Source: Candidatus Saccharimonadota bacterium (GTDB taxonomy: Bacteria; Patescibacteriota; Gracilibacteria; BD1-5; UBA2023). From it: a stretch of DNA of 32,000 nucleotides. The notes beneath the pieces are model-generated. The model worked only from the letters and a program-made list of their open reading frames with translations, was not told where the DNA came from and searched no databases. The stretch's first letter is position 1; the number at the start of each line of letters is the position of its first letter. Both the position numbers and the translations under genes were made by a program. Of the stretch, positions 15,877-23,405 are shown one piece after another. Location: assembly GCA_963706795.1 (NCBI GenBank), contig OY970170.1:510001-542000 (forward strand), given 5' to 3'.

Positions 15877-15953
15877 TGGTGGGTAATATAGGATTCGAAC
15901 CTATGACCCTCTGCTTGTAAGGCAGATGCTCTAACCAACTGAGCTAATTACCC
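15877..15953 (-). tRNA. tRNA-Val(UAC), CCA encoded
   Basis: Hand-folded cloverleaf GGGTAAT/ATTACCC. Anticodon arm TCTGC-CTTACAA-GCAGA. T-arm CATAGGTTCGAATCCTATA. Confidence 0.9.
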
Positions 15954-15992
15954 ATAAATTTAGAGTGCGTTTCCGATAAATCGAGCAAAAAA

Positions 15993-16069
15993 TGGTGGGT
16001 CATACTAGGCTCGAACTAGTGACCTCTTGCATGTCGAGCAAGCGCTCTAACCAACTGAGCTAATGACCC
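15993..16069 (-). tRNA. tRNA-Val(GAC), CCA encoded, with C instead of U at position 33
   Basis: Acceptor GGGTCAT/ATGACCC. Anticodon arm CTTGC-TCGACAT-GCAAG. The loop reads U-C-GAC-A-U. Confidence 0.8.
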
Positions 16070-16090
16070 GAAACAATTTGGAATCTGAAA

Positions 16091-16167
16091 TGGTGCCCGA
16101 GGCGGGACTCGAACCCACGACCTTCAGCTTAGAAGGCTGCTGCTCTATCCAGCTGAGCTACTCGGGC
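16091..16167 (-). tRNA. tRNA-Arg(UCU), CCA encoded
   Basis: Acceptor GCCCGAG/CTCGGGC. Anticodon loop CTTCTAA. T-arm GTGGGTTCGAGTCCCGC. Confidence 0.9.
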
Positions 16168-16181
16168 GTATTCTCCTCAAT

Positions 16182-16295
16182 CTTGGCGTTTACCGACTCT
16201 CCCACCGTTAAGACGGCAGTACCATAGGCACGACAAAGCTTAACTTCTGTGTTCGGGATGGGAACAGGTGTACCCTTTGCGTATTAAACACCAAG
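16182..16295 (-). rRNA. rrf: 5S rRNA
   Basis: Reverse complement reads CTTGGTGTTTAATACGC...CCCATCCCGAACACAGAAGTTAAGC...GGGAGAGTCGGTAAACGCCAAG. Helix I is formed by the two ends. Confidence 0.85.
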
Positions 16296-16474
16296 ATCGA
16301 AGAGAAAATGACTCCGAGGAATGGATCTCGTACGAGAGATAGATGATGAGAGAAGCAGGAGTGTGTGAGTCAGTCTTGCGACTGACTCTGTGCTCTTTTC
16401 CTGAAAATTGTGGAGAGAACTATGCGCTCTGACATGCGATTAACGAAAGTATCATTTGATACGCCATCAACTTG

Positions 16475-19521
<3,047 letters not shown>

Positions 19522-19951
19522 TTATATTCTGGCTTATGATTCTCTTTGATGGTTTGTTGAGTTTTGTAACAAAACGATACTTTGTTTGGAATTCATGTTT
19601 AATGGAATGGAGCTTTCTGACGTTTGTTTGAGTTGGACTTGCGTCCTTCTCAGTCTTTGGTCTTGTGCTTTGTGTCCGTTATGTGAATTGCAATTGTTTT
19701 TCGCATGTTTAGTTTTGTATATATGCCCTTTTGTGAAGCATATATACGCGTTTATTTTACTTAGTTACTCTTCACGACATTCTTCGTGTTTCTCTCATCG
19801 TCTATTTCTCGTACGTAGATGTTAAGGGGCATTGAGGCCTTACCTCACACACCAGAAGACGAAGTTGATTCCTTGAGAGAAAAAGAGACAGAGTCTGATT
19901 GTAGATCTTGATGCAGAGCATGGTTGATCGGATCAGTGTCAGATACAGATT

Positions 19952-21427
<1,476 letters not shown>

Positions 21428-22489: not shown

Positions 22490-22555
22490 GAAGGAGATAG
22501 ATGAATAAACTCTAAATAAATATCTGAATTAAGCAAGCTCGCACCTAAAACAAAA

Positions 22556-22587
22556 AATAACCCAGGTTTTAAAACCTGGGTTATTTT
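22556..22587 (-). terminator. Intrinsic terminator after the intron-containing tRNA
   Basis: Minus strand reads AAAATAACCCAGGTTTTAAAACCTGGGTTATTTTTTG, 14 nt past the tRNA CCA end. Confidence 0.6.
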
Positions 22588-22643
22588 GAATGTCGAATTA
22601 TGGTGGGCCCACCTGGGATTGAACCAGGGACCAATCGGTTATG

Positions 22644-23327
22644 CATCCCACTTCGACTTTCGTCGCCTCTTTCGAGTTCGTGGTCTGGACTATCCCTTCA
22701 CCCACATGGGGTGTCTGCCGTCTAGTCTCTACACCTGCCTTCGCTGAAGCTTCGGCAGGCAAGCCTGCTATGAATCCTACTTTAGTAGAAGCCCCCCACA
22801 GTAGATTGCCTGCAATCCGTAGACTTGGCGAAGGATTGGCTCGGGATTACCACGTAATATTACAGAGGCTTCCCCGAATTTGACAGATATTCACCAGTAA
22901 ATTGCTCTACTGGTAGCCCTTGACGCTGAATCATATTCAATATTATGCAGTTATGATTGATAACATAACTTGCTCCATATGCTCATGCGAGCTTTCTGGA
23001 AAGCAGAAAAAATTTTGTTCTATAGCCTGTAAAAACAAGGCGCATCAGAGTTATTTTCAACAAAAGGAACGTTGACTAGAAAGAAAGATTCTTCTTATCA
23101 AGAGATTCTGAAGTTGTTGTCATACCTGTGGCTACAAGAAAAATCTCGCAGCTCTGGCATTCCATCATAGAGACGGAAAAGAAAAAGATTTTAAGCTTGA
23201 TATGCGCTCACTTTCCAATCGCACTTTAGACGCTGTGGAGTGAGAGCTCCGAAAGTGTATTTTGCTGTGCCATAATTGCCACGCAGAGACACACCATCCA
23301 GAATTGAACTTAGATTCAACGTTTTTA
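22644..23327 (-). mobile_element. Group I intron (IC3-like, tRNA-intron type), 684 nt, in the anticodon loop
   Basis: Minus-strand core motifs match the Azoarcus/Anabaena tRNA introns as I recall them. GTCAAATTCGGGGAAGCC is at 22867-22884. GGTAATCCCGAGCCAATCC is at 22833-22851. GGTGTAGAGACTAGACGG is at 22718-22735. GGGATAGTCC is at 22687-22696. The intron ends ...GGGATG (terminal G at 22644). Confidence 0.8.
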
Positions 23328-23342
23328 AGCCGACTGCTCTAA
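22953..23342 (+). CDS. HNH homing-endonuclease-like protein (129 aa), encoded antisense to the intron
   Basis: ATG 22953 and TAA 23340-23342. Three in-frame TGA at 23073, 23109 and 23241. Motifs: CSICSC...FCSIACKNKA, RF-G-SCCHTCGY, LAFHHRDGKEKDF, LLCHNCHAETHH. The last 15 nt overlap tRNA exon 1 on the other strand. Confidence 0.8.
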
Positions 23343-23378
23343 CCACTGAGCTATAGGCCCGTTAAAAACGGCAGGACG

Positions 23379-23405
23379 AGTATATAAAAAGATCGCCAAA
23401 GTCAA
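23379..23405 (-). promoter_or_regulatory. Candidate promoter of the split tRNA gene
   Basis: Minus strand reads TTGACT (23400-23405), N15, TATACT (23379-23384), about 20 nt upstream of the tRNA 5' end. Confidence 0.3.

Follow-up and report, generated by a model that had tools for sequence, protein, structure and literature searches.

In the survey of Williams (bioRxiv 2020, doi 10.1101/2020.01.27.920355), about 80,000 genomes yielded 5292 tRNA genes with group I introns; for phyla without a name, metagenomic assemblies had 0.49 split tRNA genes per genome on average. The survey reports the classical types Leu.3Ug, Arg.5Ug, fMet.2Ug and Ile2.5Ug, all of subgroup IC3, together with 17 new types, and its seed alignment includes Gba28.Ile2.2Ug and Sba135.Met.2Ug. 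Lui et al. (2021) mention that some tRNAs in circularised genomes, mostly of the candidate phyla radiation and including two Gracilibacteria, had group I introns. In this work we analysed a split tRNA gene on the minus strand of a 32,000-nt stretch of DNA (contig OY970170.1, positions 510,001 to 542,000; this whole stretch is referred to as the window, and coordinates are given in its own numbering). An earlier note on this DNA had proposed that a group I intron of the type found in bacterial tRNAs interrupts a tRNA(CAU) gene after U33, and this central reading was borne out. The note had taken bacterial tRNA group I introns to be rare, which does not agree with the figures of Williams or with the at least 120 motif-bearing loci of our own scan, and it was aware of none described in a lineage using genetic code 25.

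Our analysis makes it very likely that a group I intron of the kind known from bacterial tRNAs (IC3-like), intact and mobile, is inserted between U33 and C34 of a tRNA-Ile2 gene in the window, in a member of the Gracilibacteria that reads UGA as glycine. The locus is probably a real, intact and functional tRNA-Ile2 gene with a mobile intron. The intron type, the insertion site and the presence of such introns in this region of the tree are not new, and the window intron is a fresh member of a catalogued type. The HNH endonuclease gene that it carries in antisense orientation is apparently an undescribed variant of the design that combines an intron with a homing endonuclease. No description of the antisense HNH cassette, of its promoter or of its protein family was found in a literature search that was incomplete for subscription journals, and this absence is weak evidence.

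The closest described introns are the Ile2.2Ug and Met.2Ug types of Williams (2020), which share with the window intron a CAU tRNA as host, insertion at position 2, U(-1), omega-G and a P1 helix formed by GGCU and GGGC(U/C). The Gba28.Ile2.2Ug and Sba135.Met.2Ug seeds are short and lack an open reading frame (ORF), unlike the window intron, and an antisense HNH cassette is not described in the survey. The core of Gba28 is visibly different from that of the window (e.g. UAUAUCGGU..., GUAGAGACUAUACGCC), indicating that the window intron is another lineage at the same site. The cyanobacterial fMet.2Ug intron (the subject of Bonocora & Shub 2001, as cited in PMC3984707) encodes I-Ssp6803I (PDB 2OST), is likewise inserted at U33|C34 of a CAU tRNA and belongs to the same ribozyme family. 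A single 21-nt core motif retrieved introns of both the fMet.2Ug and the window type, which can be aligned over their whole length, and in both the endonuclease gene is flanked by the 5' splice site and the guide sequence. However, the host of fMet.2Ug is an initiator tRNA, and its endonuclease is of an unrelated family and encoded on the sense strand. The Azoarcus Ile2.5Ug intron, the structural model system of subgroup IC3, has its host tRNA species and core signature in common with the window intron, including a 20-mer (GGUGUAGAGACUAGACGGCA) found unchanged in both the Azoarcus olearius seed sequence and the window. By contrast, it is inserted after U36 (CAU|AA) and not after U33, is about 200 nt long and has no ORF; it has a 3-bp P1 with the guide at its very 5' end.

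The split tRNA gene

The coordinates and lengths of the two exons and the intron given in the earlier note (33, 43 and 684 nt; Table 1) agree exactly with the sequence and with ARAGORN, which folded the joined exons into the 76-nt cloverleaf that had been proposed, with anticodon CAT and the loop CT-CAT-AA. The junction of the ligated exons would read ...GCAGUCGGCU|CAUAACCGAUUGG (GGCU|CAUAACC), and an intron-less form of the gene would read ...GTCGGCTCATAACCGAT... Only one junction in the anticodon loop gives U(-1), omega-G and a 7-nt loop at the same time, namely the one after U33 with a terminal intron G that the note had regarded as provisional. The same U(-1)/omega-G junction recurs in 39 genome loci and 60 metagenome loci. 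With U(-1), omega-G and its insertion between positions 33 and 34 of the loop, the intron has the position that Williams assigns to type Ile2.2Ug. The note had described the U33 site as different from the classic ones; U33|C34 is position 2, the classical site of the tRNA-fMet introns (fMet.2Ug).

Without its intron mode, ARAGORN detected five other tRNAs in the uninterrupted window, none of them with a CAU anticodon. In intron mode it proposed a tRNA-Leu(TAA) whose intron is displaced by 3 nt; this was rejected, as it has no omega-G and no long variable arm. Standard tRNA finders therefore overlook what would be an essential gene of the window, and automated annotation would report a missing tRNA-Ile2/AUA decoder or a false tRNA-Leu. 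The gene is followed by its own intrinsic terminator, and a weak promoter candidate upstream of it was recognised by eye (Table 1); this element (23379-23405), with its 15-nt spacer, was not reported by a consensus promoter scan that covered spacers of 16-18 nt.

Table 1. Features of the split tRNA locus, in window coordinates
Feature	Position	Strand	Basis
Probable tRNA-Ile2(CAU) 5' exon, 33 nt, last base U33; reads GGGCCTATAGCTCAGTGGTTAGAGCAGTCGGCT (23360..23328)	23328..23360	-	ARAGORN cloverleaf; alignment with E. coli tRNA-Ile(CAT)
Probable tRNA-Ile2(CAU) 3' exon, 43 nt, first base C34 (anticodon CAU), CCA encoded; reads CATAACCGATTGGTCCCTGGTTCAATCCCAGGTGGGCCCACCA (22643..22601)	22601..22643	-	Sequence, ARAGORN
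Group I intron, 684 nt, UAAAAAC...GGGAUG, omega-G at 22644	22644..23327	-	Sequence; sole consistent U(-1)/omega-G junction
Rfam Intron_gpI (RF00028) match	22664..22954	-	59.3 bits, gathering score 50, E = 8e-13 for the whole window
Internal guide sequence GGGCU	22915..22919	-	Comparison with relatives; directly 5' of P2
P2 hairpin ACCAGUA/UACUGGU, conserved loop GAGCAAUU	22893..22914	-	7/7 pairs compensatory, 77 sequences
Catalytic core P3-P8	22687..22886	-	Covariation in relatives
P3	22886-22882 with 22719-22715	-	
P4	22877-22872 with 22846-22841	-	
P5	22868-22867 with 22851-22850	-	
P6	22840-22838 with 22735-22733	-	
P6a and P6 extension of about 90 nt, window only	22738..22834	-	Only row filling alignment columns 133-215
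P7, pseudoknot, bulged A	22729-22723 with 22692-22687	-	
P8	22713-22709 with 22703-22699	-	
P9 (22683-22680 with 22651-22648) enclosing P9a and P9b, both with GAAA loops; then GAUG	22648..22683	-	
Putative HNH homing-endonuclease gene, 129 aa (TGA = Gly), in P1 loop, antisense to tRNA and intron	22953..23342	+	Translation, PHROG
Promoter-like element of HNH gene	22920..22952	+	Family consensus, scored against controls
Intrinsic terminator, 15-bp stem then T-run, 14 nt past the tRNA 3' end	22554..22587	-	
Possible tRNA-gene promoter, TTGACT, 15 nt, TATACT; weak	23379..23405	-	By eye

Identity of the interrupted tRNA

The spliced tRNA was aligned over 76/76 nt with the E. coli tRNA-Ile that has a CAT anticodon (84.2% identity). 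The matched E. coli gene was found in all 5426 complete E. coli genomes and was the best full-length match in each; it is annotated as tRNA-Ile and its anticodon loop is CT-CAT-AA. This full-length match to a tRNA-Ile with a CT-CAT-AA loop indicates a lysidine-dependent tRNA-Ile2. The window tRNA and the E. coli tRNA-Ile(CAT) have the same D-loop (AGUGGUUA) and the same variable loop (UGGUC). The body is not that of an initiator: it has a G1-C72 pair, and the anticodon stem (GUCGG/CCGAU) lacks three consecutive G-C pairs. It also has the pairs G27-U43, C4-G69 and C5-G68, which we take to be the determinants recognised by TilS in E. coli.

In tRNA-Ile2, C34 of the CAU anticodon is converted to lysidine, by which the tRNA reads AUA. 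ATA accounts for 191 of the 990 Ile codons in the long ORFs of the window, and a decoder of AUA is therefore needed. C34 of the window tRNA would accordingly be expected to carry lysidine, and the host gene appears by homology to be tRNA-Ile2.

The earlier note had left the choice between tRNA-Ile2 and elongator tRNA-Met, of which the match to E. coli tRNA-Ile(CAT) supports the former. Were the host an elongator tRNA-Met, the intron would be of Williams's Met.2Ug type, and the Met.2Ug seed intron indeed has a nearly identical P1 (GGCU|CA...UGGGCU); the CAU anticodon and the loop CUCAUAA are common to both tRNAs. This is quite improbable, however, given that in every E. coli genome tRNA-Ile(CAT) is the best match over the full length, that both the AGUGGUUA and UGGUC loops are those of that tRNA and that the three presumed TilS determinants are present.

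Relatives at the same site

Genomes (one per species) were scanned with the core motif GGTGTAGAGACTNRANGGCAG (21 nt), which yielded at least 120 loci in many phyla, including two Gracilibacteria metagenome-assembled genomes (MAGs). The number of chance matches was estimated at about 9 (18 specified bases, 596 Gb). An archaeal candidate (Haloarcula montana NZ_CP142027.1, L090) was discarded as a chance match to the motif, as it had no Rfam match at E <= 0.01. CAU tRNAs split at CT|CATAA accounted for 39 of the loci, with introns in two length classes (about 220-370 nt and about 606-656 nt). About 70 loci were left untyped, and these may be introns in other tRNA types or other genes.

Three of the loci have the anticodon stem of the window tRNA: a Gracilibacteria chromosome with a 606-nt intron and an antisense HNH gene (L093), a second Gracilibacteria genome with a 277-nt ORF-less intron (L080) and a member of the Peregrinibacteria with a 300-nt ORF-less intron (L111). 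Among the genome loci listed, a homologous antisense HNH gene was present in 8/8 long introns of the Ile2/Met type, whose records are labelled Gracilibacteria, Moranbacteria (two), Bdellovibrionales (two), Anaerolineales and, in two cases, unclassified MAGs. In all, the cassette occupies this site in at least five named bacterial groups. In metagenomes, the 80 closest HNH loci were picked by protein alone and then searched for the junction. The HNH gene was antisense inside a CT|CATAA split tRNA in 60 of these 80, and 7 more end at a contig edge; the introns measured 595-824 nt (median 611). Homing is supported indirectly, as several phyla share this intron with its ORF at one and the same site and as the ORF is present in some close relatives and absent from others. 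When the window ORFs were compared by tblastn with the Gracilibacteria and Peregrinibacteria loci, the intron alone matched, and no synteny was detected around it.

The long introns in initiator tRNAs carry a sense-strand ORF that matches PDB 2OST, the endonuclease of the Synechocystis tRNA-fMet intron (E = 9e-63), which we assume to have a PD-(D/E)XK fold. Within the sample, the endonuclease family followed the host type: 60 HNH genes were found in Ile2/Met-type introns and 3 I-Ssp6803I-like genes in initiator-type introns, with no swaps. The window ORF is not of the I-Ssp6803I family: no PDB sequence matched it, and 2OST-like ORFs were found in initiator-type hosts alone. As a separate observation, the initiator-tRNA U33|C34 introns with a sense-strand 2OST-like ORF came from Spirosomataceae, Saprospiraceae and Runella MAGs (L045, L076 and L099), and this endonuclease, known from the cyanobacterium Synechocystis, thus occurs in Bacteroidota.

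The group I ribozyme

The intron exceeds the gathering score of the Rfam group I model (59.3 bits vs. 50), well above what chance would give, and all of the core motifs quoted in the earlier note were found in the sequence. Of the P1 and P2 hairpins drawn by Rfam (22954-22900), P1 (22954-22925) is spurious: this segment belongs to the insertion in the P1 loop, the true 5' splice site lies 373 nt upstream and there is no U-G pair. The sequence GGGCT precedes a hairpin with compensatory changes in all four introns compared (window, L093, L080 and L111), which identifies GGGCU (22919-22915) as the guide sequence and places the ORF in the P1 loop. In the long introns, the extra sequence sits between the 5' splice site and GGGCT. 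The guide follows the 5' splice site at a distance of about 400 nt. G22918 forms a wobble pair with U33 (23328), G22917, C22916 and U22915 pair with C32, G31 and G30, and G22919 pairs either with U+1 of the intron (P1) or with C34 of the 3' exon (P10). A guide of the form GGGC(U/C/G) was present directly 5' of P2 in about 95 relatives with an exon ending in ...GGCU, and in one relative (L098) an exon ending in ...GACU is accompanied by the guide GGGUU, a compensatory change. Across the family, P1 comprises 4-5 exon pairs and one intron pair, and P10 1-3 pairs. The earlier note had seen no convincing P1 or guide pairing; the pairing exists, and it had escaped notice because the antisense HNH gene, which was overlooked, fills the P1 loop.

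We aligned 77 non-redundant cores from the guide sequence to omega-G and mapped the window helices to the alignment columns. Standard pairs were found in 96.4% of cells, compared to 32-46% when the partners were slid by 1-3 columns, and compensatory changes were observed at 36 of 52 pairs, including every pair of P9, P9a and P9b. The covariation score was 0.461 vs. at most 0.114 in the slid controls, and none of 500 shuffles reached the observed value. The window copy has a standard pair at all 52 tested positions and deviates at 2 of 92 conserved columns (family median 1, maximum 8), and the G at the omega-G column is invariant in the 77 sequences. The core can be aligned with those of the four classical tRNA introns that Williams reports as IC3, and it has motifs in common with them. 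Pairwise identity to the Williams seeds (80-89%) does not discriminate between intron types and was not used. The extension of P6 folds as a single long hairpin (minimum free energy -41.6 kcal/mol, z = -2.3) in which P6 and P6a stay paired. On this comparative evidence, the intron looks catalytically intact and would be expected to self-splice.

The locus could instead be a decaying pseudogene, whose intron no longer splices, with AUA read by an uninterrupted tRNA-Ile2 or a tRNA-Ile(UAU) elsewhere in the genome. The perfect cloverleaf, the terminator that the tRNA gene has kept, the 52/52 intact pairs and a number of core deviations (2/92) within the range of the family make this highly improbable. 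The P1 of the window is short (four exon pairs and one intron pair, three of them G-U) and its P10 comprises about one pair, and both features would suit a pseudogene, but the weak P1 pattern is common to about one third of the family. The P6 extension of about 90 nt is unique to the window copy; it is, however, an unbroken hairpin beside which the pairing of P6 and P6a is preserved. The window holds no other CAU tRNA, although the view of CAU tRNAs, tRNA-Ile(UAU) and tilS is confined to its 32 kb, which favours the pseudogene alternative.

The antisense HNH gene

The HNH ORF extends from the ATG at 22953 to the TAA at 23340-23342 without frameshifts or TAA/TAG stops. Its final 15 nt, stop included, overlap the 5' exon of the tRNA. 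In 26 of 53 family members the TAA straddles the 5' splice site, while the window belongs to a subgroup of 5/53 that reads 15 nt into the exon and has the tail SRLL. The gene sits in the peripheral P1 loop, where ORF-less relatives have 45-60 nt, and the ribozyme core is intact; the 684-nt length of the intron is explained by the HNH gene inside this loop.

PHROG families of HNH endonucleases matched the window ORF (E = 2.5e-21). In a large protein collection, at least 322 homologous clusters of 121-129 aa were found, nearly all labelled 'hypothetical', the best of which was 68% identical. The window protein retains 44/44 residues that are invariant in the family (alignment of 33 sequences). 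The residues invariant in these sequences, that of the window included, comprise H71, H72, N89, N108, H110, H114 and the pairs C56/C59 and C106/C109, so that a His...Asn...His motif and two CxxC zinc-binding pairs are present. The structural model of a homologue 64% identical to the window protein (P0002) had a predicted local distance difference test score (pLDDT) of 88.3 and gave 47 matches in BFVD at E <= 1e-3, nearly all of them phage HNH endonucleases (E down to 1.6e-11). The sole disordered part of the model is its last 8 residues, which correspond to the antisense of the tRNA exon. We would file the window protein in the HNH superfamily, outside any named Pfam family.

Phage HNH proteins (PHROG 2255 and relatives; the intron-encoded I-HmuI and I-PfoP3I) share with the window protein the HNH motif and the two CxxC pairs, and its homologues on viral contigs are 35-58% identical to it. 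They differ in their location, as 76 of 80 viral homologues lie outside a CAU-tRNA intron of the window type. The intron-encoded HNH enzymes known to us are encoded on the sense strand, in introns of phage protein-coding genes. The other 4 of these 80 more distant homologues do lie inside a CAU-tRNA intron of this type (IMG/VR viral contigs L216, L221, L229 and L262). Three of these four have exons ending in ...GAACU, for which the best candidate guide is GAGUUU, with an A-U and not a G-U pair at the splice site. They may be phage-borne tRNA introns or misclassified contigs; according to a 2014 review, phage-borne tRNA introns had not been seen.

The ORF contains three in-frame TGA codons (residues 41, 53 and 103), two of which fall at positions of the family alignment that are at least 90% Gly (G41) or invariant Gly (G53). 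With TGA read as sense, the long ORFs of the window increase threefold, from 5,507 to 16,833 aa; the window has 165 in-frame TGA codons, and TGA is a sense codon throughout. IF-2 of the window is 94% identical to a protein of a 'Patescibacteria group' MAG, and every named IF-2 match at 57-74% identity was assigned to 'Candidatus Gracilibacteria'. The lengthening of the ORFs, the relatives of IF-2 and the TGA codons at conserved glycines bear out the code 25 premise of the earlier note, and the TGA at invariant glycines of the intron ORF is clean, independent support for UGA = Gly in this lineage.

A promoter-like element abutting the guide sequence

Upstream of the HNH gene, the window has a -35 hexamer TTGACG (22920-22925), which adjoins the complement of the guide sequence, a 15-nt spacer, a -10 hexamer TATTAT (22941-22946), GCAGTT and the ATG. 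The family consensus is TTGACA-N16/17-TAnAAT-N6-ATG, and the distance from the guide complement to the ATG is nearly fixed (34-36 nt). When anchored on the ATG, conservation was highest at T -12 (0.87), A -11 (0.87), A -8 (0.83) and T -7 (0.92). At least 9 of 12 promoter positions matched in 35 of 53 non-redundant family members, compared to 3% of windows inside the ORF and 2% of shuffled sequences. This level was reached in 39/58 ORF-bearing introns vs. 1/23 ORF-less introns, indicating that the promoter-like motif travels with the ORF. The window element scored 10/12, promoter rules for Gracilibacteria not being established. With the -10 hexamer at the canonical distance from the A of the ATG, transcription would begin at the ATG itself, and the mRNA would be leaderless.

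Two further observations concern the promoter candidates and the start of the HNH gene. Both promoter candidates of the locus (23379-23405 and 22920-22946) have 15-nt spacers, which may be chance or a hint at the promoter geometry of the lineage. The start of the gene together with a conserved GTT (22947-22959 in the window, GTTATGA on the plus strand) reads UCAUAAC on the sense strand of the intron and thereby repeats U33-C39 of the anticodon loop as it is after splicing, the presumed target of the endonuclease. UCAUAAC occurs within 60 nt of the guide in 41/58 ORF-bearing introns and in 0/23 ORF-less introns. This copy could be the scar of an endonuclease gene that invaded a target-like site in the intron, an idea that Bonocora and Shub are said to have advanced in 2009, or it could reflect a constraint of the promoter and start region.

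The intron might splice while its HNH gene is a silent passenger, the element being immobile here and vertically inherited. We regard this as unlikely. Decay would bring frameshifts and TAA or TAG stops, of which the ORF has none; it is full length and keeps the 44 invariant residues, the CxxC pairs and H-N-H among them. The three TGA codons might speak for a silent gene, but they stand at Gly positions, as expected of a gene translated in a code 25 host. The sub-optimal 15-nt spacer of the promoter-like element and the ORF-less versions in related Gracilibacteria (L080) and Peregrinibacteria (L111) are in line with a silent passenger, as is the established knowledge of the homing cycle that intron endonuclease genes commonly degenerate after fixation.

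In addition to the weak P1 and P10 and the limited genomic view, several points weigh against an intact and mobile intron in tRNA-Ile2. Splicing and HNH expression are predicted from the sequence, and the Ile2 identity is based on homology to E. coli over a very large phylogenetic distance. No HNH model matched the window ORF in Pfam (E <= 1) or NCBIfam (E <= 0.1), the PDB sequences gave it no match, and the model of its homologue P0002 had no significant fold match in the PDB, where the top ones were HNH nucleases. The spacer of the window promoter is 15 nt long vs. 16-17 nt in the family, and with this short spacer the HNH gene may be weakly expressed in the window genome.

Proposed mechanism and significance

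The tRNA gene would be transcribed from the minus strand, with transcription stopping at its own terminator. In the precursor, the exon sequence GGCU and the first intron base would pair with GGGCU to form P1, in which the 5' splice site is marked by the U33-G wobble; the P1 loop of about 400 nt would be looped out and the P2-P9 core would fold. An external guanosine would then attack after U33, the terminal G (22644) would take the place of the external guanosine, and the exons would be ligated to give the 76-nt tRNA. As P10 comprises only about one pair, the tRNA body probably holds and aligns the exons, by analogy with Zaug et al., a work that we cite through the reference list of a review. 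On the opposite strand, the P1 loop would constitute a complete cassette: a sigma-70-type promoter, a leaderless ATG, the 129-aa HNH protein and a stop that coincides with the 5' splice site or lies just past it. The HNH protein would act as an endonuclease, presumably cutting intron-less tRNA-Ile2 genes at the anticodon-loop sequence, and repair from the intron-bearing copy would spread the intron (homing).

We suggest tentatively, with some doubt prevailing, that these introns form an undescribed class of mobile tRNA introns that crosses phyla and is defined by an antisense cassette in the P1 loop, a promoter that abuts the guide, a leaderless ATG, a new HNH family directed at the tRNA-Ile2 loop and a stop at the splice site. 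If so, the cassette would need neither a Shine-Dalgarno sequence nor read-through from host genes, which would explain its expression in Patescibacteria, Chloroflexota and Bdellovibrionota, and also in a code 25 host after GGA-to-TGA drift. Both strands would be read, one as the P1 region of a ribozyme and the other as a promoter, a possible design for the host-independent expression of a selfish gene. The endonuclease family is uncharacterised, and its candidate target, the tRNA-Ile2 anticodon loop, is defined and highly conserved.

Splicing is a precondition for lysidine at C34, the base that adjoins the splice site, and about 1.4% of all codons in a reduced genome would thus depend on the ribozyme. 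The split tRNA-Ile2 locus extends a known phenomenon and does not overturn current understanding; its value lies in annotation and in pointing to a new endonuclease family.

Neighbouring genes and spurious reading frames

The conserved ribozyme gives rise to spurious 'conserved' ORFs on the opposite strand. Two plus-strand ORFs antisense to the ribozyme core (22533-22913 and 22641-22883) obtained tblastn matches elsewhere that resemble those of a conserved protein, because the RNA is conserved. Such core-antisense ORFs are likely annotated as hypothetical proteins in MAGs.

A 16S-23S-5S operon followed by tRNA-Arg(TCT), tRNA-Val(GAC) and tRNA-Val(TAC) is present on the minus strand (15877-21427). 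At 1476 and 2944 nt, the rRNA genes have the normal length and carry no insertions, and their arrangement in an operon agrees with the report on Gracilibacteria in PMC8172020. The 16S gene is found about 1.2 kb downstream of the split tRNA gene, which has its own terminator.

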